A stretch of DNA of 64,000 nucleotides, taken from the IMG/VR virus record IMGVR_UViG_3300029288_006559, positions 70,293 to 134,292 of that record; one strand, given 5' to 3'. Positions 25,004-45,277 of the stretch are shown here, one piece after another (position 1 is the stretch's first letter; every line of letters starts with the position of its first letter). Under the pieces are notes generated by a model. The model ran no database searches. It was given only the letters and a program-made list of their open reading frames with translations, and was not told the origin of the DNA. The stretch comes from a virus. Taxonomy: Duplodnaviria; Caudoviricetes. The translations under genes and the position numbers were made by a program.

Positions 25004-25042
25004 TTTCGTGAATTCTTTTGTGTTTATTCACATATATTGTAT

Positions 25043-25816
25043 GTGAAGCAAGCGTCCGACACATACGTAACTAGTGTTCCTGAGCCTGAGATTTCTCCAG
25101 AAGAACAGATAGGACTTGTGATTGTTCCCGATCTAAAACTTCGTAGGACCAATCCTAAAAGGTTTGATATTCATCAGGATTGGTACACATCTAACGGAGA
25201 ACACGAAGATACTTCCGTTTCTAATCGTTACGATAATACTGAACCTTTGTTTGCTAGTTTAGACCAACTAGATTGGGAAATAGAACATTATGTAGAAGGA
25301 AGTTCTTTATTTAAAGCTTCTTCTCTACATTTATTCTCTTTTGAAGATCTACTTCTTAAGCGTAGACAAGCTTATTTACAGTCTGTAGGTAATATAATTA
25401 TCTACAAAGATTTTGCTCAAGAAGTAAAAGATTTTATTGATGAGAAGTTTAAGGATTTATTAGATAGACATCCCAAAGCAAGAGAGCATTTGAATTCTTT
25501 ATCTTTAGAGTTTACTCTACGTCCGGAGGATTATCGTAATAATATTGGGGCAGAATATTATCCAGAGACAAAAACTATAGGTTATTATCTTCCAAAAGAA
25601 ACTTTGAAGAAAAATTGGGCTGGAGTTGTTCACGAAATAGTGCATGCTTTACAAGATTTTTTTCAAGACTCAGAGCCAGCACTTGTTTCTCCACCCAAAG
25701 TAACTGCTTCTTATAAAACAAATAGGTTTGTTTACAGAGCAGATAGGGGGGAAGAACAAGCCTATGCTATTGAGTATGAGTTTAAACAATGGGTGATTAA
25801 ACATGCCTGTAAATAA
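25043..25816 (+). CDS. Protein with C-terminal HExxH zincin metallopeptidase domain
   Basis: VVHEIVHALQ and downstream EEQAY; GTG start inferred. Confidence 0.65.
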   Translation: MKQASDTYVTSVPEPEISPEEQIGLVIVPDLKLRRTNPKRFDIHQDWYTSNGEHEDTSVSNRYDNTEPLFASLDQLDWEIEHYVEGSSLFKASSLHLFSFEDLLLKRRQAYLQSVGNIIIYKDFAQEVKDFIDEKFKDLLDRHPKAREHLNSLSLEFTLRPEDYRNNIGAEYYPETKTIGYYLPKETLKKNWAGVVHEIVHALQDFFQDSEPALVSPPKVTASYKTNRFVYRADRGEEQAYAIEYEFKQWVIKHACK

Positions 25817-28800
25817 TTCTCCTTCGTTACAAATTAATCCTGTTATACAAGATGTATGGAATAAATTAAAAACGGAAAGACGTCCTTTAAGTGTACAAGA
25901 TTTTGTAGGGCTTGATCCAAAGTTAGTTGCAAATGCGTTAGCATCATTGTATAGACAGGGATATGTGTATAATGTCGAAGGTCTTTGGGCTCCTACTCAA
26001 GCTACGGTTACCAATAAAGCTAAAACGTATACTCCTACAGAAGAAATTACTGGAGTTAAGCTTCCTTCAAAAAATTTCTTTGATAATTATTTAGCTCCTG
26101 TGCTATCTCATTTTTTAAAAATTCATCCTGAATATAAAGCAACCTTCGATTTCCTTTTTAAGAATCCCGTATATAGAAAAGGCATAACGGAAGATATTCA
26201 AAAGATCTTGTCTCGAGAGTATGTTAAGTTCGATCCTCGAAAAGCAACTATTCCACGCTACAAATATCCAGAAATATTAAATAGTGTTGAACAGGCTCTT
26301 GTAGAAGAATTAGGAGAAATTAATAAATATCATTCTTCTTTAAAAGGCAAAGTACCTTCTGTTGCAACAAATAAGGCTACAGCTGATTTCTTTAATCAAT
26401 TGATGCAAACTCAAGGTGATCAAATTATTGCAAATGTTTTAAATGAGGCAGGTTTAGGAAGGCCTGGTCATATTTTAACAGAAGCCGAAATTAAGCAAAC
26501 AATTGCAAATGGTAGCGTAAAAGAGGTTATAAAAAACAAAAGAATAGATAAAGTGGTTTTTCAAGATTACTTATACAATGCAATTAGTAATTCATCCTAT
26601 GCAAAAGAACATAATATTTTAGTAGAGGGAATGGGGGATGAAGATATACTTCGTATTTTTGGAATGCAGTTACAAGCTAATCTCAAAAGAGCGGCCGATG
26701 TAATAAATAATTTTCGTAGTAGTGGTTTGGTAAAAAAATATCCTGGAATTCTTTCTGGTCGGGACTTAAAAGAAGCTAACTTTACGTTAGCAGATTTATC
26801 TGATCTTATGATTGCCAATAGTGATTTTACTGATGCTAATTTTTCTAATGCTAAATTTGATGGAGCTAGAATAAAAAATAATAATTTCTACAAAGCTAAA
26901 TTTATAGACGCTTCTTTAGTAAACGTTGCTGCTTTTGAAGATAATATTATTGGTCAAGCCGATTTTCAAGGAGCGGCTATCCCGAAAGGATTTCCCGATG
27001 AATCTAATACAGGTATACCTATTAATTTGAATTTTCATGAAATTGCTCATAGTGAGGAAGGTTTAGATGCGGCGTTAAATTTAAAAAGCCATTCAGTGCA
27101 TTCTCTTCCATTAGAGGAAGAAGAAATTGATGATGCGAAAGCTATAATGAAGGCCTTACATGGAGTTCTTCAGCACAGAAATGTTCTTAGCAGTTTAAAA
27201 CTGTCTTGGGAAGAACCCGATCCTGTGGAGCTTGCTAAAGAAATGTACGATTCGGGAGAGTGGTTGTCTTATGTTCCTTCTAATGGTAAAGCAATGAAGA
27301 AACCGCGGAAGTATCAACCCGGAGAATTAGTTGCAAAATTAGTGGATAGTGAACATCCTGCCTCCGGAAAATATTATTATGTAGCATCTTATAGCACTCC
27401 CGGAACTGGTAATTATATTTTATTAAACGCACAGGGGCAGGTGAGAAAATCTCAAAATATTAGAAAAATTGAGCTACTCTCTCCAGAGCAGAAAGACATT
27501 GTTTTTGGGCAGGAGCTACCAACCCCCTCTCTTTCTTCTCTATCTTTAACTGCTTCTTCATTGACCGAAGCTCAAGTTCAGCAATTACGAACTTGGATAC
27601 AAGACCCTGAAGCCTTACCTGACTTTTTACCTCCTGACTCTATGAATTGGTTAGTGTTAAAGAACAAGTCAGGTGAATTAGCTGCCGCGGGTTTGGTAAA
27701 AGCAGAAATAAATAAACTATTTGGTAGAGCGAGGAATTTAAGTGCTCCAAAAGAACCTGTAATTTCTCCTGAGGAACAGAAAAAACAACTACAAAACCAG
27801 TCTATAGAACAGTTTATAAATAAATACAAAGATGCGGAGGAGTTTCCCGTTGAGGATGTTCTTTCTCTTATGTCAGAAACTCAGGGGGAATTACGTAACC
27901 TTATTTCTGCTTACGGGCCTATGCTTTCTCAAGCAGAAGCACGGGCTATTTTATATGGTCTTGCATCTTCTTTAAATCAATATCATGTACCTAAATCTGT
28001 TACTCCTAAGAAATGGATAAAAGCTTTTCCTTATTCCGTTAGTATGAATAATTTAAGTGATACAGGGACTGCTCATGGAGTTGCAGGAAGAGGAAAGCAA
28101 TTTGGTATTCTCATTCGTCCAAATCTTGCTCAAATGTCTCCTGAATTAGCAAATTCTACTATGATTGCTATTGAAGAAGCAGGAACACATTTAAGAGGTG
28201 CATTAGCTTTTAGTCGTATTATGCCCTATCATTATACTTCTATAGGATATAGAGGAACAGAATCTCCTACTGTTAAGAATGTTTGGTTTATTAGTGAAAT
28301 GCAAAGCGATGCTTATCAAAAAGGCAATGATGAAATAAAAAGTAAGGAAAAAGCTCGGGCTTTTCGAAACTATTTTAGACATTGGCCAGAAGTATTATTA
28401 GGAGCTATAATTACTCAAGCCCAAAAAGCAGGTGTAGATGAAATATGGATGCCTGAAGGTAAGGAAGTTATTGCAAAGACTGATGCGTCTAAGTTAAAAG
28501 AAGATAGTTGGGATTATGCATACGATAGACCTGCAAAAGCTTATGGCGGAAGACTAAAAAGCATTGGAGATAACATTCTTCTTGATCCAGGTAGTAGCTA
28601 CAAACGTACTACCAATATGGCATATGTTATTGATATTTCTGGAATAAAGCAAAAAGCTAGTTTGAAAGTAGCTTGGGAAGAACCTGAAATAGCAAATAAT
28701 ACTGAAGAGTTGATCCAACTGTTAGCTCCTTATCAAGTGTGGGAATTAAGTAATACTACACCAAAATTCTATCTTTATTTAGGAGAAAAACCTTCGTTAT

Positions 28801-30620
28801 TTGAGACTTCTGATTCTCCTTCTAATTACACTGTAAGGGGGGTGTATACAGAACTTCTAACAAACAATCCAGGGGAGTTAATTGTTTATTTACCTCTTGA
28901 AAAGGAGTACCCTCTAACTTTAGTAGCTGAAGATTGGAGGAAACTCGATAAAGAGGCAAATTTAAGAACTTTTGCTAAAGCTATAGATGACTATAAAGAT
29001 AATATTATTCATCATATGAAATTTATTATAGATGAGAATTTACCTAAGTTTCAGGTGATATCAAAATACGTAACTATGGATATGTTAGCCCAATTTGCTT
29101 TTAGAACATTTTTTGATGAGTATGGCGTTCCTGAAGAATTAAAAAATGATTCTGAATTTATCGGGGATGTTAAGAAAGTATTCGAAGATGAATTCGGGGC
29201 TAGAATCTGGGAGCCTCCTTATATTGATTGGCTACATTGGTTGCAAAAAGCTTTGAATGATGTTCTTTATTATGTTCACAATCAAAGACACAATGTACAA
29301 CCGGATATGACTGTAAGCGATCAAGAGCTTGCTCGAGATTGGTTTAATTTTTGGTTACAAGATCAAGTTCCTTCTGATATTAAGGGAGCCCCTTGGTTTG
29401 TATCTAAATTTATACCAGCCGTTCGTCAATTGGTTAAAGAACAAGGCTTAGGAGATGTTTTAAGTAGAGATTTTATTCCTCCTCAAACAATGGAAGAGAG
29501 AACTCAGCAAATTATTCATCCTTCTGATACTGGAGAGGGAGAGAAAATCCTAGAAGGAGAGGGGGAAGGATTATTACCAGAAGAAGAAGTAAAAACGCAA
29601 TTTCCCGGGCAGGAAAAGAATGTTAAGTTTTTATCCCCAACCGAAAGACGGAAAACAATTGATAAGTATTTGGATGAGCTTTCTACCGCTCAAGAATCTG
29701 GAGATAATGCAAAGGTAAATGAAATAAAGCAAAAGTTACAAGAATTATCAGCATCTTCTTCGTTGAAGCTATCTTGGGAAGAACTAACAAAAGAAGAAGA
29801 ATTAAAAATAAATATACTTCATGCTATTTATTGTGCAGAAGCTGTATTACCTATATATGAAAATAAATATCCTAATGACAATAGACCTAGATTAGCTATA
29901 GAAGCAGCGAAGACAGTATTAAAATATCCTACTGAAGAGAATAAAGCTAAAGCCAAGGCTGCTGCTTGGGCTGCTGATGATGCTGCTGATGATGCTGGTT
30001 TTGCTTCTCATGCTGCTGCTTATGCCGCTGCTAGGGCTGCTACTTGGGCTGCTGCTTGGGCTGCTGATGCTGCTGCTAATGCAATTAAGTATGCTAAAAA
30101 AGCAGCTAAAGAGGCTAATATAGATATAGATTTCGATAGTTTATTATCTAGAGCTCAATCAGATATATGGGAATATATTAATATATCAAAATCTAGTAAT
30201 ACTAGTGAAGCTAGTAAAGCTAGTTTGAAAGTAGCTTGGGAAGAACAAACACTTCCTCCTCCAAGAGACGATGTCTATCCCTATTCTGTTAAGACTCCGT
30301 CATCACCTAGAATTTCAGGAACATATTTATGGATTTTGAAAAATCTTTATGATAATGGACCTCAAAGAATTATTCAGTTATGGGAGAAATATGTATCTGA
30401 GAGAAAAGGCAAAGATCCTGATAGGTTGAGAGAAAATTATTACGGTCAATCACCTGAGATTCTGAATAGGGGGGTAAGTGTTAAGTATTATCAAGGTGTT
30501 AGTTCTAGGATAAATGATCTTGTTCATTTTGGTTGGATAGGAAAATCTGCAGAAACTAAATACTATTACGTACTATTACCTAAAGGTCTGAAAGAACTGA
30601 AGAAAGCAGGAATGGTATAA
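25803..30620 (+). CDS. 1605-aa polyvalent modular protein (wHTH, pentapeptide repeats, E-x-Q-S-D domain, Imm5-like domain, wHTH), putative virion cargo
   Basis: Domains separated by four [SA]SLK[LV][SA]WEE motifs; lies upstream of the portal. Confidence 0.7.
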   Translation: MPVNNSPSLQINPVIQDVWNKLKTERRPLSVQDFVGLDPKLVANALASLYRQGYVYNVEGLWAPTQATVTNKAKTYTPTEEITGVKLPSKNFFDNYLAPVLSHFLKIHPEYKATFDFLFKNPVYRKGITEDIQKILSREYVKFDPRKATIPRYKYPEILNSVEQALVEELGEINKYHSSLKGKVPSVATNKATADFFNQLMQTQGDQIIANVLNEAGLGRPGHILTEAEIKQTIANGSVKEVIKNKRIDKVVFQDYLYNAISNSSYAKEHNILVEGMGDEDILRIFGMQLQANLKRAADVINNFRSSGLVKKYPGILSGRDLKEANFTLADLSDLMIANSDFTDANFSNAKFDGARIKNNNFYKAKFIDASLVNVAAFEDNIIGQADFQGAAIPKGFPDESNTGIPINLNFHEIAHSEEGLDAALNLKSHSVHSLPLEEEEIDDAKAIMKALHGVLQHRNVLSSLKLSWEEPDPVELAKEMYDSGEWLSYVPSNGKAMKKPRKYQPGELVAKLVDSEHPASGKYYYVASYSTPGTGNYILLNAQGQVRKSQNIRKIELLSPEQKDIVFGQELPTPSLSSLSLTASSLTEAQVQQLRTWIQDPEALPDFLPPDSMNWLVLKNKSGELAAAGLVKAEINKLFGRARNLSAPKEPVISPEEQKKQLQNQSIEQFINKYKDAEEFPVEDVLSLMSETQGELRNLISAYGPMLSQAEARAILYGLASSLNQYHVPKSVTPKKWIKAFPYSVSMNNLSDTGTAHGVAGRGKQFGILIRPNLAQMSPELANSTMIAIEEAGTHLRGALAFSRIMPYHYTSIGYRGTESPTVKNVWFISEMQSDAYQKGNDEIKSKEKARAFRNYFRHWPEVLLGAIITQAQKAGVDEIWMPEGKEVIAKTDASKLKEDSWDYAYDRPAKAYGGRLKSIGDNILLDPGSSYKRTTNMAYVIDISGIKQKASLKVAWEEPEIANNTEELIQLLAPYQVWELSNTTPKFYLYLGEKPSLFETSDSPSNYTVRGVYTELLTNNPGELIVYLPLEKEYPLTLVAEDWRKLDKEANLRTFAKAIDDYKDNIIHHMKFIIDENLPKFQVISKYVTMDMLAQFAFRTFFDEYGVPEELKNDSEFIGDVKKVFEDEFGARIWEPPYIDWLHWLQKALNDVLYYVHNQRHNVQPDMTVSDQELARDWFNFWLQDQVPSDIKGAPWFVSKFIPAVRQLVKEQGLGDVLSRDFIPPQTMEERTQQIIHPSDTGEGEKILEGEGEGLLPEEEVKTQFPGQEKNVKFLSPTERRKTIDKYLDELSTAQESGDNAKVNEIKQKLQELSASSSLKLSWEELTKEEELKINILHAIYCAEAVLPIYENKYPNDNRPRLAIEAAKTVLKYPTEENKAKAKAAAWAADDAADDAGFASHAAAYAAARAATWAAAWAADAAANAIKYAKKAAKEANIDIDFDSLLSRAQSDIWEYINISKSSNTSEASKASLKVAWEEQTLPPPRDDVYPYSVKTPSSPRISGTYLWILKNLYDNGPQRIIQLWEKYVSERKGKDPDRLRENYYGQSPEILNRGVSVKYYQGVSSRINDLVHFGWIGKSAETKYYYVLLPKGLKELKKAGMV
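28653..28683 (+). repeat. 31-nt exact direct repeat, copy 1 (encodes KASLKVAWEE)
   Basis: AAAGCTAGTTTGAAAGTAGCTTGGGAAGAAC, identical at 30216-30246. Confidence 0.9.
30216..30246 (+). repeat. 31-nt exact direct repeat, copy 2
   Basis: Identical to 28653-28683. Confidence 0.9.
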
Positions 30621-31858
30621 TGTTTTGGGAAGAAGATATTATTGTTAGCAGTGTAGAAGAGTTAATTACGCAAGCAGAGCCTGGGCAAATATGGTTAGTT
30701 CAAGGTAGAAAATGTCCTTATCCTTATTTTCATATCATAGATCGTTTACAGCGTTCTTCTCTTGATCGTAGTTTTTATATTAATGGAGGAGCCTTTGCAA
30801 AAAATCTAAATTTTAGTAGTACTATAAATCCTGAAGGAGAAAACTCTCATATTGATGAAAAAGATTTTCCTTTAAAACTGGTAAAAGATTCTACAACAGC
30901 TTCAGAGAAACCTTTAATGGATTACGATTCTACTAGAGGTCAGTGGTTTGTAAACGAACCTGATGCTCCTGCTTTAGATAATAAAGATCTTACTCAAATA
31001 TTTGATACTGATTTGAATTTAAAAGACAAGCAACGTTCTGAAAAAGAAATAGTAGACTTTAGGGATAGAGAAAATCTCCAGCTTGCTTTTAGTAGTTTAA
31101 AATTATCGTGGGAAGAGGATTTTATTTCTCCCCAAAAGGTGTTAGAGTTATTGGATAAAACTATAGCAGAAGAAAATGAACAAGCTACTCAACGGTATAT
31201 AGAAACTATTGAAATTGGAGAAACAGATGCAAAAAAATATTTTGATCCTCTAACAGCTAGTGTAAAAGATTTTTCCGGGGTTCCAGAGGCATCCCAATTT
31301 TTCTCTGCAGAACGCGAACTATTTCATGTTGGAATAGTGTATGATATCATTGCAATTCCTGTAGGTACAGAAGAAATTATTTATTTAGCTATGGGATTAG
31401 GTTCCCCTCCTGTAGAAGCTTCTCTAAAATTATCTACTCCTGAAACGTACACTGACGGAGATGATTTTAATCAAAAGAAGAACGAATATGATAATAGAGC
31501 TTTGCAGTTTCGTCAAGAAGATAGTTTATCTTTAGTTCTACCAAAGGATACGTTAAAAGGAGAGACAGATATAACGTATTTTCCTTCTCCAAAAGTGTAT
31601 CAAGACATTAACGAAAACCCAGGTTATGCGGATATGGCTATTACTGCAGATTTGAAATTAGCTTGGGAAGAAGAAGAATTTAAACCTGGGGATAAGGTAA
31701 AGCTATTAGAGGATTGGCCTCTTGATCAAAATAGTAGGGATATTATTCCCGCGGGTACTGTAGGTAAAATAAACGAATTACCTGGAGCTCAATTTAGTTG
31801 GAAAAGCTTCCGTATTCAGTTAGGTGTAGAACCTTGGGAAATTGAGCGTGTAATGTAA
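30620..31858 (+). CDS. Modular protein with LKLxWEE motifs and a C-terminal KOW/SH3-like domain
   Basis: Starts MFWEE; internal SSLKLSWEE, ASLKLS and ADLKLAWEEEEFKPGDKV. Confidence 0.65.
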   Translation: MFWEEDIIVSSVEELITQAEPGQIWLVQGRKCPYPYFHIIDRLQRSSLDRSFYINGGAFAKNLNFSSTINPEGENSHIDEKDFPLKLVKDSTTASEKPLMDYDSTRGQWFVNEPDAPALDNKDLTQIFDTDLNLKDKQRSEKEIVDFRDRENLQLAFSSLKLSWEEDFISPQKVLELLDKTIAEENEQATQRYIETIEIGETDAKKYFDPLTASVKDFSGVPEASQFFSAERELFHVGIVYDIIAIPVGTEEIIYLAMGLGSPPVEASLKLSTPETYTDGDDFNQKKNEYDNRALQFRQEDSLSLVLPKDTLKGETDITYFPSPKVYQDINENPGYADMAITADLKLAWEEEEFKPGDKVKLLEDWPLDQNSRDIIPAGTVGKINELPGAQFSWKSFRIQLGVEPWEIERVM

Positions 31859-31977
31859 TAATACCAATCTATCTTTCAATCTCTATATTAAGAAATTACA
31901 TATATACATTGTTATTTATTGTTAAATGGCTATTTACACATTTGTAGTATGAATTCTCCTTGTTTTGAAAGGTAAAT

Positions 31978-34900
31978 ATGGGTAGGTTACTTATAGGCGG
32001 TAAATTTGCATTAGTGAAATCCTCCTCCGAAGACGATTTTAAGCGCGCAAGAGAGGGTAATTCTGGTTTAGCGGGCGCTGGATTTATTGACATTCCTAAC
32101 TATGAAGCAAAACGTGGCGTACGGGGTATAAACAAAGTTCAAGATACATTAGCAAAGCAAGCTACCTTTACGGATGTTACACGTAATGCTCCTTTGTTTA
32201 ATGATCCTAGATATACATCTTCTACCTTATCTATTCCTACAGATGAAAGAACTTTAAACGGTCTTTATAGATTCTTTGCAGAAACAGATCCTATTGTAGG
32301 TTCTGCTATTAAATTGCAAACCGAACTTCCTTTAGCTGATTTAAAACTCGGGCAATGCGAAGATCCTGGAGTGCAACAGCATTATGAAGAAATGTGGGAT
32401 AGAATAAGTGGATATAGGTTATTAACGGATATTGCTTCTGAACGATCAGAGATTGGAAATTGCTACCCTTTTGGAGCTTTTAATGAACATGATTATATGT
32501 GGGATCAATTTGCTATCCTTAATCCTGATTATGTTAAAGTAGAATCTACATGGATAAATCAAAAGCCTCTAATAAAATTAATTCCTGATGAAGCATTAAA
32601 AAAGATTGTACAAACACAAAGTCCTTCTTTTATATTTAAGCAGTTACCTCCTGAAATCATAAAGAATGTCTTATTTAACCAAGAAATTCCTTTAGCGTCA
32701 AATAATACATTTCATATTACCCATGCAAAGAGACCTTACGAATTAAGAGGTAGGTCAATTATTAAGCGTATTTTAAAAACTTTAATGCTCGAGGATAGGT
32801 TTAATCAAGCTAATTTTGCTCTTGCTACCAGACATGCTGTTCCTATCACTGTTGTTAAAGTTGGAGACGCTTCAACAGGTTGGTTACCTTCTAACGAAGA
32901 AATCGACTCTGTTAGAGAGGCTTTTTCTGCTTACGATCTTGACCCTAATTTCTGCTATGATGAGGAAACGGAATGCTTAACAAAAGACGGCTGGAAGAAA
33001 TATACGGAATTAAGTAAGCAATCGGAAATAGCTTGCTTCAACCCCAAGACGAATGGTTTAGAGTATCATAAAGCTTCTTATATTAATATTCAAGATTATG
33101 ATAATGTTATGTATCATTTTAAAACCCGTGGTATGGATATGAAAGTTACTCCCAATCATAGAATGTGGGTATTAAGAGATGGAAAGTGGCAGGTTGTTTT
33201 AGCTGAAGATGTTAAGTGTGAAGACCAATTTAGAACTGTAGTAAGTAATTTTGAGTATGATGAAGAATTTCCTAAAACTATAAATGTTGGAAAATATACT
33301 TTAGATATGGGAGATTTCTTCGAATTTGCCGGATGGTATATATCGGAAGGATCATTAGAAACTAAACACAACTATACAGTACACATTACGCAATGTAAAG
33401 AAGATACAAAGGAACAAATTCGCATTTTACTAGAAAAGTGTTTTGGATATGTCGGATATTATGGTAGTAGTTTTCAAATTTGTGGGAAAGATATAGGAGA
33501 GTTTATTTGTAATACTTTTGGTAAAGGATCTAAAACAAAGTTTCTCCCTCAATGGATGTTAAATGCTCCAAAAGAATATCTCGAACGATTATTTGAAGCT
33601 TACCGTTTAGGAGATGGAACTCAATGGAAGTTAAAAAATAAAGAAAACTTTATTGTATTAGCTTCTCAATCAGAAGCGTTAATTGATGCTTTTCAAATAA
33701 TAGCTTTAAAATTAGGTTATGCTAGTAGAAAAAGATTTTTAAATTTGAATTATAAAAAGATGGTAAAAGGAAAGTATCAAAAGAAAAATACTCCTTATAA
33801 AATGTTTTATTTGAATGTGACTAAGTGTAAGGTCATGTCTTATCCTAAAATACCTCACAGACTTAAAGTAGTTAAAGAATTTCCAAAATTAGTAGTAGGA
33901 GTTATTCCTTACTCAAGTTCAAAACGTATTGCTTGGGATAAAGTTAATATTTCTCAATTAGTAAAGCAAACAGGCGGGGTTCTTCGTCCATTAGTTACAG
34001 CTTTTAGAGTAAATGCGGGTACTATTACTACTCAAGCAAGAAAACAAGGAGTAGTTGCTAAAGTAGGGGGAGAAGGTCATGTAAAGGGAGGAAAAGTTTT
34101 TGAACCTAGATATATTAATAAAGTCCCTTATAAAGGTAAGATTTGGTGCGTAACTGTTCCTACGGGAATTATAGTAACCCGCCGAAATGGGAAGGTGTGT
34201 ATTCAGGGAAATTCCTTGTTTTACCACTACGGTATAAATATTGAGTTCTACGGTTCCAATGGCCGTATGTTACCCGTTGGGCCTGAGTTAGATCGTATTT
34301 ATAGATTAAAGTTTATTGGCCTTAATATGCATGAACAATTAATGACCGGAGCCGGGGGAAGTTATTCCCAAGCTTATATTAATTTAGAAGTTCAGCGTCA
34401 GAGGTATCTAAACCTTCAACTCCAACTTGAAACTTTTTATCATCAGGGTGTTTGCAAGCCAGTGGCAGATTTATGTGGATTTTATAGAATTAAACAGCCT
34501 ATTTCTAGTTATACTGGAGTGTCATCAACAAGATATGGTCAAGAAGATAGACGAGAGATAGAGACTTTAAAACAATCTTCTACTTTAAGAGATTTTCAAG
34601 ATAACAAAGAATACAAGCAGTATCAGGCAGCTAAGTTAGCCGAAATTGAAAGTCAAAAAGCTCATCAAGTAAGAGAGTATATTTATCCGAAACTTGACTG
34701 GGGGGGTATGAATGCTGCTACAGATGAGAATTTAAAGAACTATATTAAGTGGTTACAAAAAGAAAGACCTTGGCTTGTTGATGATGCTACTCTTGCCAGG
34801 CTTGGGCGTTTAGATAGAGATACGCAAGAAAAAGCTTATATAAAGGATTTGGAAAGAACACAAGCTCGCTATAAAGAATTATCTAAGAAAGGGTTATTAC

Positions 34901-35226
34901 CTTTTGCTCTTCAAAAAGGCACTCAAAGCCCTGCAGACATGGGGGGAATAGGAGATATTAATGTAGGTCCAACAGGGGGAGGTGAAATGGCAGGTCCTGG
35001 AATGGAAGGAGGAGAACCAAACGCTCCTATGGGAGTTGGAGGTCCTCCAGAAGCAGCTAATGCTCAAGTACCTCCTGCAGGTGTTCAAAGTTCTTTAAAA
35101 GACATGGAAAAAGATGTAACTGCATTTGTTTTTAAAGATGACATGACTATTGGTGCAGAGAACAAGGCTTTGCAAAAAGCTAAAGAATATGAAAGTAAAG
35201 CACTTTTTAGAGTAGTTAACAGGTAA
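31978..35226 (+). CDS. Portal protein with intein
   Basis: YRFFAETDPIVGSAI, GNCYPF, ILNPDYV, RGRSIIKR portal-like motifs; Gly/Pro-rich tail; precedes the head protease. Confidence 0.8.
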   Translation: MGRLLIGGKFALVKSSSEDDFKRAREGNSGLAGAGFIDIPNYEAKRGVRGINKVQDTLAKQATFTDVTRNAPLFNDPRYTSSTLSIPTDERTLNGLYRFFAETDPIVGSAIKLQTELPLADLKLGQCEDPGVQQHYEEMWDRISGYRLLTDIASERSEIGNCYPFGAFNEHDYMWDQFAILNPDYVKVESTWINQKPLIKLIPDEALKKIVQTQSPSFIFKQLPPEIIKNVLFNQEIPLASNNTFHITHAKRPYELRGRSIIKRILKTLMLEDRFNQANFALATRHAVPITVVKVGDASTGWLPSNEEIDSVREAFSAYDLDPNFCYDEETECLTKDGWKKYTELSKQSEIACFNPKTNGLEYHKASYINIQDYDNVMYHFKTRGMDMKVTPNHRMWVLRDGKWQVVLAEDVKCEDQFRTVVSNFEYDEEFPKTINVGKYTLDMGDFFEFAGWYISEGSLETKHNYTVHITQCKEDTKEQIRILLEKCFGYVGYYGSSFQICGKDIGEFICNTFGKGSKTKFLPQWMLNAPKEYLERLFEAYRLGDGTQWKLKNKENFIVLASQSEALIDAFQIIALKLGYASRKRFLNLNYKKMVKGKYQKKNTPYKMFYLNVTKCKVMSYPKIPHRLKVVKEFPKLVVGVIPYSSSKRIAWDKVNISQLVKQTGGVLRPLVTAFRVNAGTITTQARKQGVVAKVGGEGHVKGGKVFEPRYINKVPYKGKIWCVTVPTGIIVTRRNGKVCIQGNSLFYHYGINIEFYGSNGRMLPVGPELDRIYRLKFIGLNMHEQLMTGAGGSYSQAYINLEVQRQRYLNLQLQLETFYHQGVCKPVADLCGFYRIKQPISSYTGVSSTRYGQEDRREIETLKQSSTLRDFQDNKEYKQYQAAKLAEIESQKAHQVREYIYPKLDWGGMNAATDENLKNYIKWLQKERPWLVDDATLARLGRLDRDTQEKAYIKDLERTQARYKELSKKGLLPFALQKGTQSPADMGGIGDINVGPTGGGEMAGPGMEGGEPNAPMGVGGPPEAANAQVPPAGVQSSLKDMEKDVTAFVFKDDMTIGAENKALQKAKEYESKALFRVVNR
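32953..34212 (+). mobile_element. Intein with LAGLIDADG endonuclease (420 aa) in the portal
   Basis: C-YDEETE start, VTPNH, AGWYISEG / EAYRLGDG, ends IQGN followed by Ser. Confidence 0.9.
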
Positions 35227-35240
35227 GGAGAAAAGACATA

Positions 35241-37460: not shown

Positions 37461-37481
37461 CTAATTAGAAGGATTTATTAT

Positions 37482-39029: not shown

Positions 39030-39216
39030 TGGGATATTCCAAGTAGGAGATAATCCTGTACCTTTAGATGAAGAGTCTTTACAGAAGCTTGCTCAATCTT
39101 TAGCTTCTATGGAGGAAGTTCAAGTTAAAAATTGGATTGAGCAAATTAAGCAAACTAAAGAAGGTAGTCTAGAGGAGAAAACTGCAGAAAAAGGGGGTAA
39201 TCGTGGATATGTATGA
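39001..39216 (+). CDS. Hypothetical protein
   Basis: Overlapping ORF with AAGGA RBS. Confidence 0.5.
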   Translation: MIHKVAYISNGIFQVGDNPVPLDEESLQKLAQSLASMEEVQVKNWIEQIKQTKEGSLEEKTAEKGGNRGYV

Positions 39217-39844
39217 GGTAGATTATCCTACTCCTGTAGATCCTATGAAGCAAACAGAAGAGCTTGCTTCTCACTTGGATGAAAAGAGAGACTTTGTTAT
39301 GCAACATGTCTTTCCCGAAACAGAAACTACAGATGTAATTGTAGGGTTAAGGCAAGATATTTTGAAAGAAAAACCCACAGAAGCTCCTGTGCCTAAAGAG
39401 TCTTCAAAAAAGAATTGGAGGAAAGTGTTAAGTTGGCAGGAGGAGTTTTCTTTTCCTGAACAAGAAACAGAAATAACCCTTCAGCAGCTACTTGAACTGC
39501 GTCCTGAATGGGAGAGATGGTTGCCTTCTACAAAAAGACTTTCGTTTTTAAAATTATCTAGTATAAAGGTGAGTACTGTTCCTTCTTCTAAAGAGCGTCA
39601 TTTAAGTTTGTTTTTTCTTTCTCCTGAATTTGAGTACTCTATAGGTTGCACTTTACCAAGTAATAGAGATAAAAAGGGTTATATGGGGTGTATTGTGACA
39701 GAAAGGCAAGGACGGCGTAGAGGGAATGATTTAGAAGATGGGGAATATTCAAATTCTACGTGGAATAGGATTTTACGAGATATAAAAGAATATGAAACAA
39801 GCACAGGAAGATGGAAACAGGAAGAAGGAGGAAGGTTCTGGTGA
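39203..39844 (+). CDS. Modular protein containing KKNWRKVLSWQEE
   Basis: Hybrid of the two linker motifs, followed by a GYMGC...RGNDLEDG domain. Confidence 0.55.
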   Translation: MDMYEVDYPTPVDPMKQTEELASHLDEKRDFVMQHVFPETETTDVIVGLRQDILKEKPTEAPVPKESSKKNWRKVLSWQEEFSFPEQETEITLQQLLELRPEWERWLPSTKRLSFLKLSSIKVSTVPSSKERHLSLFFLSPEFEYSIGCTLPSNRDKKGYMGCIVTERQGRRRGNDLEDGEYSNSTWNRILRDIKEYETSTGRWKQEEGGRFW

Positions 39845-40212
39845 GGGCTTCTCATACATATTCTGACCTCTCTTTAGTACACAACTGGCGTAGGCAATTA
39901 CTTTTAACTCACGAAAGTAGTCATGATCTAGATAATCCTATAGAATATGTTGCTTTAGATGTAAAAAAGTTACCTATGAAAATAGCTAGATTTTGCCGAG
40001 AAAAATGGTATAGTTTTGGCTTCGATTATGATTTATCTACACAGGTTCTTTGGCCTTTGGAGGATGGAGTCTCGGCTCAAGAGTTAGCCGATAGGATTAA
40101 TAAGAAGTTTGTAAAGGCGGCTTCTGTTATTAAAAAGCCCCCTATAGAAGCTCACGATTTGGACAACGATAGTTTAAGGTTAGATATAGAAAATAGTGAG
40201 GCTACCTATTAA
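39811..40212 (+). CDS. Hypothetical protein (contains NWRRQLL)
   Basis: ORF; probable GTG start at 39841 after GGAGG. Confidence 0.5.
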   Translation: METGRRRKVLVRASHTYSDLSLVHNWRRQLLLTHESSHDLDNPIEYVALDVKKLPMKIARFCREKWYSFGFDYDLSTQVLWPLEDGVSAQELADRINKKFVKAASVIKKPPIEAHDLDNDSLRLDIENSEATY

Positions 40213-40241
40213 ATATTGGTTATAGACACAAAAGGAAAATT

Positions 40242-42551
40242 ATGAAAAAACGTTCTCAACAACCCTCGGTTAATTATCCCTTGCAAGGAGAAGCTGTAGA
40301 ATCTAAAGTAACTGCTACTGTAGATGTACCTATAACTCAAGCCACAGGTGCAAATTTAAGAGCTCAAATTGAAAGTTGGCTTTTAAAAGATATTGCAGAT
40401 AGACATGTCCCAGTACAGTTAGCCGGTTTTCAGGTACAGGATATTATGTTTAATAGAGCAACCGTATCGGTTACATATACTGGAAATGAAGCCGAAGTTA
40501 CAGAATATATACAGCAATTAGGAGCCCCTATTACAAACGTAGGGAGTAAAAAAGTAGCTATTAAAGGCCATGTTTGTGATAATTGCAGCCGTTCCCTTTC
40601 AGAGGATGCTTATGTTGGCCCAGGAAGTTGGAGCTACAAATGTCCAAAGTGTGGCTTCAAATATATCCATGGCAGTAATTTAACTGCTGAAGAACAAGTT
40701 AAGAAGTTTAATAATGAAGGACAATTTGAAACAACTTCCTCTCAAAAGAAAAGTTGGAGGCAAACCCTAGGAGCTACCGAAACGCCGAACAAAGGTTTTA
40801 AACCCTATAAAGGGGATACCCAAACATTTCCTGGTAGTGCAGAATTTAAAGGAGATGAATTTCCCTCAAAGGGAGATCCAGCGAAGAAGGAATTAGGAGC
40901 TTGGAAAGAAGGTAATCGTTTAATGCAATCTGATAAGAAATCAGATGATAGTCAAACTGAACACGGTTCTCCTCTTATGTCAGAAAAAATAAAGCGTTAC
41001 GATGTATTAAAACATAATAAAGAAGAGCATGTTTTACCGAAATATGCTGGTAAGAAATCTTTTTGGAGAAAAGTATTATCTTTCGGATTTGGCGGGGATA
41101 CAGGTATAGACGCTGATGTAAGTGCTCCAAAATACGATTATGTAGGCGAACCTGTTAGTTATCACGGAAGAGCAGGTGTAGTAGATCTTCCTGAAGATGA
41201 ATTTGGTATGGTAGAGGTTAGATTTGATGATACAGGTGAAGTTGAGGCTGTTGATGCAAATGAATTAAGAGAACAAGAATTCGGAGAAGCTCCTGAAATT
41301 TTAGGCCCTATTTCTTCACAAAAAGTAGCTGAAGATATTCATATTGTAAAATGTCCTAATTGTGGATATGCTGGAAATGAAGAAGAATTTCTACCTCCTA
41401 ATACTCCTCCAGAAGCTGCGGATTTTTATACTTGCCCTAGTTGTCAACAAGATATGCCTTTAGATGCAGATTCTACATATCCTTTTGAGGAAGATGATGC
41501 TTTGTTTTCTTCTAAAAAGTCTTGGAGAGAAAAGTTAGCTTACATTTCCAAAGAAGATAGCGGATATACGGTGCGTAGCGAAACAGGAAAGAAACTGAGA
41601 AAACACCCTACTACCAAAGAAAAAGCTAAAAAGCAATTGCAAGCAATCGAGATAAATAAGTATAAAAGGGGGTCTAAAGAGGAAGATACTTATCCCTTTT
41701 CAATAACTTCTGGTCCCGGAGAAGAACACCAAATATATAATGAAGAAACTGGGGATATGGAATATGTAGGTAGAGGAAAGGAAGCTGAAAGAAAAGCTAA
41801 AGAAATTATACAGAGAAAATTACACCGTAGGAGAGCTTTTTTACAACAAAAAGCTGATATTTCTTTTCAAAATCGTCCTGATGGTACGGTAAAGATAGAT
41901 GTAACATCTCATCCTAATGAGCCTTTAACTCAGAATCCTAACACTCAACAACCTCCACCAATGAGTCCAGAGCAAGTACAAAATCAGCAGGTGGAAGAAA
42001 CCTCGGAAAAGAAATCTACGTTAAAAAAAAAGATCGCTTCAGAAGATTATGAAGCCTTAGCTAAAGACTATGGTGTAATATTTAAGGGTATTCAAAAAGA
42101 TCTTCGTAATCCTACTGCCCCCGGATTTCCGATGTTTGAAGATCCTGCTACAAAATCTACTTTTTTACTAAGACCCGACGAGACACTACCCCATGCTATT
42201 GTAAGGTCTCAATCTGCTTTTAGTTTACATCCTAAAAATAAATTAACTTCCTCTGCTGCTTTTGAAAAAGCCCTCGCGGATTTACACGTTGTAGGAGAGG
42301 ATTTACAGAGAAAAGAATCTTCTTGTTCTGATAATCCTATAGAATCTTGGGTTATTCGTAAAGATGGTAATTTAGCTTTAATTGGTAAACAATGTAACAC
42401 TCATTGCGGAATCTTTATAGAAAAAGATGGGAAGGTAATTAAAGAAAATAAACTAGAAAAAACAGCTAATAATCTTACCTGGCGAGAGCTTATTAATCAA
42501 GCAGAATGGGAAGTTGAATACGAGAAGTATCTAAACCAAGAAGGAACATAA
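40242..42551 (+). CDS. Modular putative head-cargo protein with zinc ribbons and repeated KKSWR motifs
   Basis: KKSWRQTL, KKSFWRKVL, KKSWREKL, TWRELI; CDNC/CPKC and CPNC/CPSC. Confidence 0.6.
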   Translation: MKKRSQQPSVNYPLQGEAVESKVTATVDVPITQATGANLRAQIESWLLKDIADRHVPVQLAGFQVQDIMFNRATVSVTYTGNEAEVTEYIQQLGAPITNVGSKKVAIKGHVCDNCSRSLSEDAYVGPGSWSYKCPKCGFKYIHGSNLTAEEQVKKFNNEGQFETTSSQKKSWRQTLGATETPNKGFKPYKGDTQTFPGSAEFKGDEFPSKGDPAKKELGAWKEGNRLMQSDKKSDDSQTEHGSPLMSEKIKRYDVLKHNKEEHVLPKYAGKKSFWRKVLSFGFGGDTGIDADVSAPKYDYVGEPVSYHGRAGVVDLPEDEFGMVEVRFDDTGEVEAVDANELREQEFGEAPEILGPISSQKVAEDIHIVKCPNCGYAGNEEEFLPPNTPPEAADFYTCPSCQQDMPLDADSTYPFEEDDALFSSKKSWREKLAYISKEDSGYTVRSETGKKLRKHPTTKEKAKKQLQAIEINKYKRGSKEEDTYPFSITSGPGEEHQIYNEETGDMEYVGRGKEAERKAKEIIQRKLHRRRAFLQQKADISFQNRPDGTVKIDVTSHPNEPLTQNPNTQQPPPMSPEQVQNQQVEETSEKKSTLKKKIASEDYEALAKDYGVIFKGIQKDLRNPTAPGFPMFEDPATKSTFLLRPDETLPHAIVRSQSAFSLHPKNKLTSSAAFEKALADLHVVGEDLQRKESSCSDNPIESWVIRKDGNLALIGKQCNTHCGIFIEKDGKVIKENKLEKTANNLTWRELINQAEWEVEYEKYLNQEGT

Positions 42552-42553
42552 AG

Positions 42554-43051
42554 ATGTACAATTGGCGAAAAGTTTTTACGTCTTCTGACATAATCAAAAC
42601 AGCTACTACTTCTTGCCCCTGGTGTGGATCTAGTAATCCTCCTGTTCCTACAGAAGAACATTTAGATGAGGCTATTTTTGAACACCAGCCAAAAGATCTA
42701 TACCATGCTCTACGTAATCCTTTAATGTGTCCAGATTGTCTACATGTAGGTAGCTATGAAGATTGGCAAGCGGAAGAGAATAGGATGACTTCTCTAGATA
42801 GTTTACATGCTTCTAATTATCGTTTAGGTAATCCAGGCCGTAACTGCGCAGCTTGTCAACTGTTCGCTTCTCAAGAAAATCCTCTTTCTATGACAGGACA
42901 AGTTCCCGAAGAAAACAAGGCAGGAGTTTGCGGCGTACACAACACAAGAGTTGTTGGAAAGATGTTGTGTGACGACTTTAAACCTGAGAAAAGGGATCCT
43001 TACCATTCTTTAGATATGCATGAAGGCGTTGGTGAAGACGATGGATGGTAA
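42554..43051 (+). CDS. Cys-rich protein starting MYNWRKVF
   Basis: CPWC, CPDC, CAAC...C...C. Confidence 0.55.
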   Translation: MYNWRKVFTSSDIIKTATTSCPWCGSSNPPVPTEEHLDEAIFEHQPKDLYHALRNPLMCPDCLHVGSYEDWQAEENRMTSLDSLHASNYRLGNPGRNCAACQLFASQENPLSMTGQVPEENKAGVCGVHNTRVVGKMLCDDFKPEKRDPYHSLDMHEGVGEDDGW

Positions 43052-45047
43052 TTTAAAACTTTCCTGGGAAGAACCGAACATAGCTTCTTTGGTTTTATCT
43101 CGCGCTGCATTGAGTTGTTTGATGGCTCCTGTAACTGTTACGAAAGAAATAAAAGCTTTACAGAAGCTAATTCCTGATGATGTTATTTATTCTCCCGATA
43201 ATCCAGATTACGGAAGAGAAGTATATCCCCATATCACTGTTTTATTTGGACTTGTAACAGAAGATATAGAAGCTGTAAAGAGAGTTGTTCAGGACTCAGA
43301 TCCCATTGATTTAGTTTTTGATAACAAAACGTCAATTTTTGAACCCGATCTTGAATACGATGTTGTAAAAGTTGCGGTTAAATCTCCACAGTTATTTGAA
43401 ATGAATAAAAAATTACAAGATAAATTTGAAGTAAAGACAGATCATAAAGAGTATAAGCCCCACTTAACAATTGCTTATGTTAAGAAAGGAAAGGGAAAGA
43501 AATACGACGGGTTGTCAGTTTCTTTACCTAATATGAAATTAGATACTTTGGATTTTTCTAATCACAATCACGATAAGACATCTTTTTCTATTCAAGGAAA
43601 GAAAGCTTCTTTGGTTTTAGGGTCTGTTCATACTGATTATTTAAAAGAACACGAGATAGAAGAGAGAAGTGTAGGTCTAGGTTTTAGTGAAAAAGAACAA
43701 AAATGGTATGGTTGGTCCCACCGAGCAATTCAAGGATTTGGAGTAGGAGATAAACCAAGCGAACCAAGCCCAACCGGAGATTCTGCTCTAGATAAAAAAA
43801 TTAATACAATGCAAGAAGCTGAAGAGGCAGCACGTAATTTTGCTGAAGCTGTTTCTTCGCAAAAGCCTGTAAATTTATCTTTGAAAGTTTTTTCTGCAAA
43901 GGGGGATATTATTGTTAACCTTCCTGTTCCTGGAGGAGAGGGAACATTACAAGGAAAGGTTATTTATAGAAAAGATAAAAAAGGTGGAACTACGGCATAT
44001 TATTATGATGCAGAAGGTAAATTACATAGAGAAGGAAAGCCCGCAATAATTGGTCCAAAAGAGGAAGCTTATTATAATCATGGATTGCTTCATAACGAGG
44101 AAGGACCGGCTCGTATTTTATCTAACGGAACGAAAGAATACTGGTTAAATGGTAAGCCCTTGACACAGGAAGATTGGACAGAGAGGAGGGGTAAAGAAGA
44201 GCTTTTATTGCCAGATTTATCTTTAGTGGAGAAGAAAGAGAAACCTTCTTTGCCGGAAATAAATCAGATTTCTATAAAGGATTTATCTTTACAAAACGTT
44301 CCTGGGGATATTTGGCAAGCCCACCTTTTATCTGGCAGATCTGTTTATTTTACTTTCGAGACAATTGAACATGTTGGAGAAAAGGAAATTACAGGTTATG
44401 GAAAATATTCTTTATATGAAGATGATATCTCTAAACATGATAATACAAGATTTACTATCCATGATTATGACGGGCCTTTTAAAAAAGTAAAAAAAGCAGA
44501 TATAATGCCTGAATCTTCTTTAGAGTTACCTGGAGGAGAGAGTTACCAAGATTCGGATTTAATGGATATACAGTTCGATGAAAAAGTAAAACATTCCCCG
44601 ACAGTTAGAAAAGAAGATCAAGATATTGTTAAATATAGGTTAGATCTTCAGAATGAAGAAAAGTTTTTTGAAAAGGGGTTACATCAGAAAGTGAATATGC
44701 CTCAGGTAACAAGACCTATTGTACCCTACGGTAGTTTGAAACTTTCTTGGGAAGAAGACGAATTTAAGGTAGGGGATAAAGTAAGAATATTGTCGAAGAG
44801 TATAGGCGCTTCTTTAGTAGATTCCTATACAAAGGTTGGGGATACAGGCAAAATTATTGAGTTAGTTGTTCCAGGCACCAAGATGTGGGAGCATTTGCAT
44901 TTAGCTTATTACTTTAAAGCTATAAAGGGGGAGGGAATAGCCTATCACGTTATCTGTTCTAGTCCTGGGGGCGGAGTATTTTTACAATCTGATCTTGAAT
45001 TAGTGGAAAAAACCTCCATATTATCGAGTTTAAAACTATGCGACTAG
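43041..45047 (+). CDS. Modular protein with N-terminal 2H phosphoesterase (2'-5' RNA ligase / Acb1-like fold) and further cargo domains
   Basis: Starts MDGNLKLSWEE; HITV and HLTI motifs; LHREGKPA/LHNEEGPA repeats; GSLKLSWEEDEFKVGDKV. Confidence 0.7.
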   Translation: MDGNLKLSWEEPNIASLVLSRAALSCLMAPVTVTKEIKALQKLIPDDVIYSPDNPDYGREVYPHITVLFGLVTEDIEAVKRVVQDSDPIDLVFDNKTSIFEPDLEYDVVKVAVKSPQLFEMNKKLQDKFEVKTDHKEYKPHLTIAYVKKGKGKKYDGLSVSLPNMKLDTLDFSNHNHDKTSFSIQGKKASLVLGSVHTDYLKEHEIEERSVGLGFSEKEQKWYGWSHRAIQGFGVGDKPSEPSPTGDSALDKKINTMQEAEEAARNFAEAVSSQKPVNLSLKVFSAKGDIIVNLPVPGGEGTLQGKVIYRKDKKGGTTAYYYDAEGKLHREGKPAIIGPKEEAYYNHGLLHNEEGPARILSNGTKEYWLNGKPLTQEDWTERRGKEELLLPDLSLVEKKEKPSLPEINQISIKDLSLQNVPGDIWQAHLLSGRSVYFTFETIEHVGEKEITGYGKYSLYEDDISKHDNTRFTIHDYDGPFKKVKKADIMPESSLELPGGESYQDSDLMDIQFDEKVKHSPTVRKEDQDIVKYRLDLQNEEKFFEKGLHQKVNMPQVTRPIVPYGSLKLSWEEDEFKVGDKVRILSKSIGASLVDSYTKVGDTGKIIELVVPGTKMWEHLHLAYYFKAIKGEGIAYHVICSSPGGGVFLQSDLELVEKTSILSSLKLCD

Positions 45048-45277
45048 TTTCTAACGATACATACTCTTTTGGCGACGGAACTTTTGCTTGGTTTGGGTTA
45101 ATTGACCCTAAACTTTTTCAAAGATATACCTGGTTATTGTCTATTCCTATTTTTACGCCTGTAACTATAGGTATAAAAGGAGTTGGTTCTTCTACTATTC
45201 CTTCTGGAATTACAGCCCTATCTCAAAAAGTTAGTGTTGGAAGTCCTAAGATAGGGGTTAGTGTAAGAGATTGTTAA
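45038..45277 (+). CDS. Hypothetical protein, possibly structural
   Basis: Coupled ORF. Confidence 0.5.
   Translation: MRLVSNDTYSFGDGTFAWFGLIDPKLFQRYTWLLSIPIFTPVTIGIKGVGSSTIPSGITALSQKVSVGSPKIGVSVRDC

Follow-up and report, generated by a model that had tools for sequence, protein, structure and literature searches.

The DNA analyzed here, referred to as the window, is the final 64 kb (64,000 nucleotides [nt], positions 70,293 to 134,292) of the 134,292-bp IMG/VR record IMGVR_UViG_3300029288_006559, a 73% complete record of a virus of the class Caudoviricetes. Downstream of the terminase gene the window carries the gene for a portal protein and that for a candidate head maturation protease, and these two genes are flanked by three large open reading frames (ORFs), here called A, B, and C, which contain a recurring short peptide, LK[LV][SA]WEE (coordinates in Table 1). 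A regular-expression scan of all six frames located eight copies of this motif, all on the plus strand: four in ORF A, two in ORF B, and two in ORF C. They are the same eight copies that had been listed in an earlier reading made from the DNA letters without database searches (the sequence-only reading), whose coordinates were counted, like those in Table 1, from the [SA]S prefix and thus lie 6 nt 5′ of the LK starts. The partial copies named in that reading were likewise present in the translations: ASLKLS-TPE at 31418 in ORF B, the upstream half-motif SSLKLCD* in which ORF C terminates (45024-45047), the downstream half MFWEE with which ORF B opens, and VLSWQEE at 39428 in ORF 39203.

Outside ORFs A, B, and C, the pattern LK[LVI][SAT]W[EQ]E was found nowhere in the six frames of the 134,292-bp record. 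As the sequence-only reading had anticipated, the motif is restricted to multidomain ORFs of the head-gene region. From the composition of the proteome, 0.0004 copies would be expected by chance in 41,115 residues, compared to the eight that were seen. The codons for L, K, L/V, and S/A vary among the eight copies, and an exact 31-nt stretch is common only to copies 2 and 4 (both ASLKVAWEE). Because the copies differ at synonymous sites, the motif appears to be kept at the level of the peptide; the same variation rules out that it is a single DNA repeat.

Related phages carry genome-specific forms of the motif

Fourteen IMG/VR loci encode the same portal protein (61-79% identity), and in most of them very large ORFs beside the portal gene contain a recurring variant of the motif. 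The word K-[LKF]-[SAG]-W recurs in large plus-strand ORFs of L043, L044, L047, L048, L051, L052, L053, L056, and L062 and also in P0002-4, P0006, and P0040, compared to one such word in total in the opposite-strand ORFs of the same loci. Across the relatives the motif logo reads [SA]-S-x-K-L-S-W. Most genomes use a single set of residues after the tryptophan, and this set changes from genome to genome (Table 1); co-evolution of the sites with one reader encoded in the same genome would give rise to such dialects. The WEE ending of the motif as given in the sequence-only reading is thus the dialect of this genome, and the core in the clade is K-L-S-W.

The relative G001, a complete genome of 181.7 kb, contains 41 copies of [SAG]WD[IL] in about 12 ORFs, with a median spacing of 126 residues (range, 59-670), and the ten ORFs with the clearest copies total about 8.6 thousand residues. 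None of the 41 copies is located in the portal, the protease, or the major head protein of G001; one is located in an ORF between portal and protease, and a scaffold-like protein rich in Glu and Lys contains a near-copy (ASYWDIT). In the DNA of G001, K-x-x-W-D-I was encoded 14 times on the coding strand and was absent from the other strand and from a reversed control.

In phage G no such motif was found near the portal gene. Other giant proteins with a 2H phosphoesterase domain (up to 5614 residues) that were retrieved with ORF C also lack it, and for this reason we reject it as a general property of polyvalent proteins, multi-effector proteins that are predicted to be packaged, delivered with the DNA, and split into their domains by peptidases (Iyer, Burroughs, Anand, de Souza, and Aravind, 2017; PMC5512222). 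When IMG/VR was scanned with a narrow pattern for the dialect of this genome, 21 stretches on 19 contigs were obtained; only one contig had multiple copies, and the remaining matches look like chance singletons. Because the portal region of phage G and the other 2H-bearing giants are free of the motif and IMG/VR yielded one further multicopy contig, the architecture appears to be clade specific and rare. One member of the clade, L062 (JALNZI010000002.1, 164.6 kb), is a near-copy of the L052 phage with a K-L-S-W-D-I-P polyprotein and was deposited in a Candidatus Omnitrophota metagenome-assembled genome, which is weak evidence and may represent a host hint or a binning artifact.

Modules are gained, lost, and reordered at the motif

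Comparison of the relatives showed that the segments between motifs behave as modules. In P0003, a homologue of ORF B, two modules are absent and one is extra, and every difference starts and ends at a motif. In P0004, a zincin-like region, MORN-like repeats, and a Fic domain are found on the same conserved segments. The 2H domain is part of a giant ORF upstream of the portal gene in L051 and L052 and of ORF C, downstream of the protease gene, in the window; the Tad6 domain, fused to 2H in ORF C, forms a separate 339-residue protein in L085. Further modules in the relatives are Fic, methyltransferase, acid phosphatase/HAD, NUDIX, papain-like peptidase, and LPD28, the last a "large polyvalent protein" domain of Pfam that is present in G001 and was not found by Pfam in the window.

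In intergenome BLAST comparisons of the unsplit proteins, 28% of the C-terminal match ends were located at most 10 residues from the tryptophan of a motif, compared to 7% after random placement of the motif (maximum of 15.7% in 300 trials), and the offsets peaked at −1 and 0 relative to the tryptophan; the matches are non-independent and the motif itself attracts alignments, so that these values are supporting evidence and not proof. The interchangeability of modules supposed in the sequence-only reading is thus seen between related phages, and the exchanged modules include domains of the antidefense type (Tad6, 2H phosphodiesterase, Fic, and Imm5-like). We consider it highly probable that the motif is a functional junction signal, acting at the protein level, of cargo-type polyvalent proteins.

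Domain content of ORFs A, B, and C

In ORF A, Pfam identified pentapeptide repeats at residues 317-395 and an Imm5-like domain at residues 1333-1439, the latter bracketed by motifs at residues 1321-1327 and 1475-1481. ORFs B and C have a small C-terminal domain in common. For ORF C, the start codon was placed at the ATG at 43041 because a GGTGA box is located upstream of it and the public gene call starts there, and the protein probably begins with MDGNLKLSWEE. The leader with this motif is followed by a 2H phosphodiesterase domain (residues 58-156 according to Pfam), Tad6, MORN-like repeats, a further folded domain, a low-confidence segment with the second motif, and the small C-terminal domain. 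The pentapeptide, Imm5-like, and 2H phosphoesterase labels of the sequence-only reading were confirmed by Pfam and by fold, and Tad6 was found in addition.

The Tad6 match (PF25188, residues 207-279) scored 60.1 bits versus a cut-off of 27 (E value, 3e-16) and spans positions 49-145 of the 145 profile positions; this part of ORF C alone matches 42 IMG/VR loci. Tad6 proteins bind ThsB of type I Thoeris (PMC13728456), and the region, with a family match above the curated cut-off, is a candidate type I Thoeris inhibitor domain. A search with Foldseek confirmed the 2H fold, with Usb1, LigT, and phage phosphodiesterases ranking above Acb1 (7t26). The score for the Acb1 family in Pfam was 17.9 bits and thus below the cut-off of 27, whereas the general family 2_5_RNA_ligase2 scored 43.5 bits.

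An AlphaFold (AF2) model of ORF C was calculated from a 66-sequence alignment (Table 1; confidence is given as the predicted local distance difference test [pLDDT]). The first motif (residues 12-18 in the 675-residue numbering) forms a coil with a short helix on either side, and the 2H domain begins about 12 residues further on. Both motifs of ORF C were located outside the confidently folded domains. The 2H, Tad6, and MORN-like parts and the next folded domain form one unit without an internal motif. The proposal that the motif marks domain boundaries was therefore supported insofar as copies lie at or next to borders and at N termini, but it does not separate every domain.

Immediately before the last motif, residues 499-574 of ORF C (44500-44730) are predicted to be disordered and yet are 35-50% identical in the relatives. 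This segment, which ends with P-Y-G-S-x-L-S-W in six genomes, looks like a propeptide or a scaffold-binding region.

Table 1. Features of the window, regions of the ORF C model, and forms of the motif in related genomes
Feature	Position	Strand	Basis or remarks
ORF H, 259 aa, small zincin-like	25037..25816	+	HExxH (VVHEIVHAL) in translation
ORF A, 1605-aa polyvalent protein, 4 junction motifs	25803..30620	+	Translation, Pfam
Motif copy 1, SSLKLSWEE	27189..27215	+	ORF A; LK at 27195
Motif copy 2, ASLKVAWEE	28656..28682	+	ORF A; LK at 28662
Motif copy 3, SSLKLSWEE	29757..29783	+	ORF A; LK at 29763
Motif copy 4, ASLKVAWEE	30219..30245	+	ORF A; LK at 30225
ORF B, 412 aa	30620..31858	+	2 full motifs and upstream half (ASLKLS at 31418)
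Motif copy 5, SSLKLSWEE	31091..31117	+	ORF B; LK at 31097
Motif copy 6, ADLKLAWEE	31646..31672	+	ORF B; LK at 31652
Portal with intein (LAGLIDADG)	31978..35226	+	phrog_16240 at 1.7e-45; Pfam intein/LAGLIDADG
Candidate head maturation protease with intein (LAGLIDADG)	35241..37460	+	phrog_18299 in relatives, gene order
ORFs D, E, F, G	39203..43051	+	Second junction/leader motif (K)K[SN]WR-x-x-[LF]
ORF C, 675 aa (668 aa if translated from ATG at 43041)	43020..45047	+	Pfam, AlphaFold model
Motif copy 7, GNLKLSWEE	43047..43073	+	ORF C, residues 3-11 if start is 43041; LK at 43053
Motif copy 8, GSLKLSWEE	44730..44756	+	ORF C; LK at 44736
2H domain	ORF C residues 31-190		pLDDT above 95
Tad6 region	ORF C residues 200-280		Moderate confidence
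MORN-like repeats	ORF C residues 314-395		Mixed, block means 52-94
Further folded domain	ORF C residues 415-494		pLDDT about 90
Segment with second motif (575-581)	ORF C residues 495-638		pLDDT below 50
Motif form in L043			SSLKLSW and variable residues
Motif form in L044			[SK]-x-K-L-S-W-Q
Motif form in L047			SLK[LF]SW
Motif form in L048			SQKLSW-x-x-Q, 8-9 copies in 1602-aa ORF with Fic domain
Motif form in L051, L052, L062			K-L-S-W-D-I-[PK]
Motif form in P0006			SLKLSWE[IMV]
Motif form in P0040			L-K-L-[GA]-W-K-Q

A second motif and ORF ends that resemble half-motifs

The second motif, found in ORFs D to G and also in their relatives, has K-x-S-W in common with the first one, and in ORF D the two overlap (KKNWRKVLSWQEE). 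The first 77 residues of ORF D, which end at the second motif, are kept in six relatives, and the downstream sequence differs. Residues 168-250 of ORF F, starting at the second motif, together with residues 685-764 correspond to a short protein conserved in all relatives.

In several ORFs, ORF C among them, the full motif follows closely on the initiator methionine, in the manner of a leader; examples from the relatives are MKIALSWDIPELK and MINSLNLFKVGWKQ. Others start with the W half only, namely, ORF B, ORF G (MYNWRKVF), and the Tad6 protein of L085 (MSWRTVL). ORFs with such half-motif ends look like products of a break just before the tryptophan.

The portal and the candidate head maturation protease

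The portal protein is free of the junction motif. In all nine portals compared, a K-x-[A/S/G] sequence is located at the border between an N-terminal extension of about 60 variable residues and the conserved core; in the portal alignment, the corresponding residues of the protein encoded in the window are K-Q-A-T. A protease that follows the rule K-x-small| would be in keeping with this border, and K-L-S|W would satisfy the same rule.

The product of ORF 35241, in which the intein is inserted at KRAH|C..HN|CEHNS, is 55% identical to the 335- to 345-residue proteins encoded after the portal gene in the relatives. All nine aligned relatives match phrog_18299, annotated as "head maturation protease" (best E value, 1e-10). 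This portal-linked protease is present in 13 of the 14 portal-seeded loci, and its gene directly follows that of the portal in most of them, with one ORF in between in L051 and L052. The only cultured relative is gp19 of Bacillus phage G (22% identity), the gene of which is flanked by those of portal gp14 and capsid gp27. In the protease alignment, KRAH and CSMG do not vary, and both are intein insertion points: in L051 and L052 the intein is located after CSMG and differs from the one at KRAH|EHNS in the window. Because the inteins differ, they appear to be independent insertions at two presumed catalytic motifs (His and Ser). Presumably, KRAH and CSMG would suit a His/Ser protease. No Pfam family match for a protease was obtained for ORF 35241 and its relatives, and searches of Pfam and the Protein Data Bank (PDB) gave no similarity of ORF 35241 to gp21, the prohead protease of phage T4.

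Every homologue of the protease (L043-L054) has, in a variable loop that connects the His and Ser motifs, a W-centered stretch, which reads KKW[SA]xL in the relatives and ALSWEKL in the window (residues ~505-515 of ORF 35241). This stretch is similar to the cargo motifs; it may serve for autocleavage or docking.

A major capsid protein was not found in the record with phage G gp27 or PF05065 as query, and the PF05065 search was also negative in five relatives; the 73% complete record probably lacks the capsid gene. In G001, the gene of the major head protein (L058:10911-12619, minus strand) matches phrog_2522 at 4e-38 over profile positions 92-313 only and is preceded by a LAGLIDADG-type ORF, and it seems to be interrupted by an intron or intein.

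The candidate protease has possible competitors. ORF H, located directly 5′ of ORF A and overlapping it, gave no match in Pfam or PHROG; its Atlas neighbors (M78, DUF3920, and LPD23) are leads only. The HExxH region of ORF H is embedded in motif-punctuated polyproteins of L047, L044, and P0004.

Proposed processing pathway and alternatives

ORFs A, B, and C are best read as polyvalent cargo precursors of the phage head in which unrelated modules are joined by one short signal. This signal would be read by the phage's own head-assembly machinery and would bring the precursor into the procapsid. There, the head maturation protease (35241-37460, after intein splicing) would cut the precursor, with K-x-[SA]|W or the position directly behind the W as the most likely site. 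Domain-sized proteins would be released, among them 2H phosphodiesterase and Tad6 as one unit, the Imm5-like module, and the pentapeptide-repeat module; retained in the head, they would reach the cell together with the DNA. Recognition, cleavage, the identity of the enzyme, packaging, and injection are steps that we infer from the sequence.

We judge the entire chain, from the signal via procapsid targeting and cleavage by the head protease to delivery of the modules with the DNA, to have about an even chance of being correct. That the motif is cleaved at all is the likelier case, an estimate obtained by adding the probability of cleavage by another protease (see below) to that of the entire chain. 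The role of the prohead protease as the cleaving enzyme is evenly poised. A wider proposal, which we put forward tentatively and hold to be slightly more doubtful than probable, is that the clade uses a true polyprotein strategy for an injected arsenal: up to ~40 domain-sized modules per genome, including ready-made inhibitors of Thoeris and of cyclic-nucleotide signaling, would be loaded into the procapsid as strings via the K-L-S-W peptide and cut there by the head protease, with each genome having its own dialect and with cassettes that could be swapped without new targeting signals.

Several observations weigh against the proposed pathway. The residue following the tryptophan is D, Q, N, K, R, or H in the relatives, and because of this variation the rule of an acidic P1 residue known from the T4 and phiKZ proteases fails across the clade. 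The K-x-[ASG] sequence at the portal border is a short pattern of low information, and the clustering of BLAST match ends has the limits given above. The protease remains a candidate, assigned from a PHROG family, gene order, the 22% identical phage G protein, and the intein positions; sequence and profile searches yielded no PDB match, and an AF2 model of the intein-free homologue from L048 (9-sequence alignment) had a pLDDT of 52 and no meaningful Foldseek match. The capsid and scaffold genes, the products of which would be the canonical protease substrates, are missing from the record. The zincin-like domain of ORF H and a papain-like ORF in L048 are alternative processing enzymes. Only four residues precede the N-terminal copy in ORF C, which would be unneeded for cleavage alone. 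Finally, the clade consists of uncultivated large phages with no cultured member.

The N-terminal copies, of which cleavage would remove only a few residues, would be accounted for if the motif served for docking only, i.e., if it fitted into a pocket of the scaffold, of the portal, or of the inside of the capsid wall, and repeated copies pinned an uncut string to the shell lattice. The regular, domain-sized spacing in G001 (median of 126 residues) would agree with this explanation, and the dialects would fit co-evolution with any binding partner. However, a single tag per polyprotein would be sufficient for loading, but tags are found at nearly every module border, and natural ORF ends mimic half-sites (MFWEE.. 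and ..SSLKLCD*), as though the modules exist separately. Moreover, uncut strings of several hundred kDa would need to pass through the tail, and known internal proteins of phages with targeting leaders are cleaved (T4 and SPN3US; PMC10052503). We therefore regard docking without cleavage as unlikely.

Cleavage might also be performed by another enzyme or at another time, i.e., by the zincin-like domain, a papain-like peptidase, or a host protease, either before packaging or after injection, as proposed for the metallopeptidase (MPTase) domains of polyvalent proteins. An HExxH domain adjoins ORF A and is part of the motif-bearing polyproteins mentioned above, L048 has a Peptidase_C1 ORF after the protease gene, and autoprocessing by embedded peptidases has been argued for (PMC5512222). 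Among the fetched loci, however, the zincin region is confined to L044, L047, and P0004 and the papain-like ORF to L048, whereas the portal-linked protease has the wide distribution given above, and searches of Pfam and PHROG assigned ORF H to no peptidase family. Processing by such an enzyme appears improbable to us, somewhat more so than docking.

The idea that the motif is a passive joint, i.e., a conserved flexible linker or a homology patch for in-frame shuffling of cassettes that is neither bound nor cut, would explain the exact 31-nt repeat at two junctions, the indels between ORF B and P0003 exactly at motifs, and the clustering of homology breakpoints, but it is the least probable explanation, since synonymous differences are seen in six of the eight copies and the relatives encode the peptide with other codons, which indicates constraint on the protein, an invariant stretch of 7 to 9 residues with an invariant Trp is unlike flexible linkers, N-terminal copies and half-motifs at ORF ends have no role in recombination, and the dialects are uniform within a genome.

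Comparison with known systems

Like the polyvalent proteins described in 2017 (PMC5512222), the proteins of this clade are giant, combine many unrelated conflict-related domains, and are encoded beside portal and head genes. The range of 2-15 unrelated domains per polypeptide given for polyvalent proteins includes ORF A (pentapeptide repeats, Imm5-like domain, and others) and ORF C, and a location among virion and portal-terminase genes, which for polyvalent proteins implies packaging, is likewise seen here, with the portal and candidate protease genes lying between the ORFs and an SLT ORF nearby. Of the signature domains, 2H is present, LPD28 was found in the relative G001 but not in the window, and the HExxH sequence of ORF H has no family match. 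Iyer et al. drew an explicit analogy to the polyproteins of RNA viruses; in contrast to the situation described here, they defined no junction or cleavage motif (the word "linker" occurs 0 times in the full text) and considered embedded peptidases only (PMC5512222). Unlike polyvalent proteins generally, the proteins of this single clade have one conserved peptide at nearly every module border and genome-specific dialects. The packaged interchangeable effectors of the sequence-only reading are thus a concept that had already been published, and it is the defined junction motif that is new.

In phage T4, a short N-terminal leader of the internal proteins serves as address and cleavage site and is removed by the prohead protease gp21 (PMC9026906). 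As in T4 IPI-III and Alt, a leader of about 10 residues (MDGNLKLSWE|E in ORF C) is located ahead of an anti-host protein encoded among head genes, and the order of events proposed here, loading followed by cutting, is the same. T4 differs in having one leader on a single-domain protein, cut at L/I-x-E, whereas the motif described here is internal and repeated and has the core K-L-S-W. Moreover, the candidate protease is not detectably a homologue of gp21, and neither an L/I-x-E leader nor a U9 protease was found. The similarity to the "x-x-E|" sites of T4 and phiKZ holds for this genome and not for the clade.

The ejection proteins of phage SPN3US (gp53/gp54 and others) are cleaved at multiple sites by gp245/gp175 after A/S/G-x-E (PMC10052503). 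In SPN3US and phiKZ, many head-internal proteins are cut at sites with one short motif, and the preference of the SPN3US enzyme for V at P4 and A at P3 is in agreement with [LV]-[SA]-W-E in this genome (PMC10052503). In contrast, cleavage in these phages removes propeptides from individual proteins rather than parting unrelated effector domains, the motif described here is longer and nearly invariant, and the acidic P1 residue is not kept in the relatives (W-D, W-Q, W-N, and W-K), which thus do not follow A/S/G-x-E. Judged from these sites, the resemblance is one of function and not of shared specificity.

Eukaryotic viruses offer another parallel, since in the polyproteins cleaved by picornavirus 3C, in pp220/pp62 of African swine fever virus, and at adenovirus protease sites, one reading frame gives many products with a short consensus at the joints. 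They belong to another realm and use another protease, and the products in the phages would be accessory cargo, instead of replication or core proteins, whose release by cleavage is presumed. Encapsulin cargo-loading peptides are short, sometimes repeated, and direct cargo inside a shell with HK97 fold; they are uncleaved and usually terminal. The SLK core loosely recalls the ..GSLK.. peptides of encapsulin cargo, in line with the docking explanation. A literature search found no paper describing the motif or the clade. The new elements are the nearly invariant junction peptide, the genome dialects, the density (~1 site per 120 residues in the relatives), and the link to named antidefense domains.

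Implications

If the motif is a loading-and-cutting signal, it would provide a rule for reading from the genome alone which proteins a phage carries into the host and at which residues the mature products have their ends. It would also represent a natural cassette system explaining the exchange of packaged antidefense domains (Tad6, 2H phosphodiesterase, Fic, and Imm5-like), and it could be transferred as a tag to foreign proteins that are to be placed in phage heads. Inhibitors of signaling defenses could then be delivered premade rather than being expressed early, and the polyvalent protein idea of 2017 would move from an architectural observation to a testable processing mechanism. The position of the motif at the joints suggests that these phages load strings of exchangeable antidefense enzymes into their capsids and that the strings are probably separated by cleavage, much as in viruses with polyproteins.

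Other features of the region

The terminase-containing ORF (16100-20557) also carries an intein. Between the terminase and portal genes, an ORF at 22487-23080 encodes an SLT lytic transglycosylase domain (4e-8), which fits the set of ejected or virion-internal proteins predicted for this region. Directly after the protease gene, positions 37482-39029 encode a 515-residue calcineurin/Mre11-like phosphoesterase (phrog_284, "exonuclease," 8e-24). A counterpart with a DLHFG motif is encoded in the same region in L051 and L052 and upstream of the portal gene in L054. The location is odd for a nuclease gene, and the phosphoesterase may be another packaged protein.

The terminal half-motif of ORF C (AGT TTA AAA CTA TGC GAC TAG; 45015-45047) includes T_TTA_AAA, a formal slippery heptamer of the type X_XXY_YYZ that is also present in the motif copies with LK at 27195, 31097, and 43053. 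An ORF of 79 residues (45038-45277) begins inside this half-motif in the −1 frame, and a frameshift fusion of ORF C to its product is conceivable.

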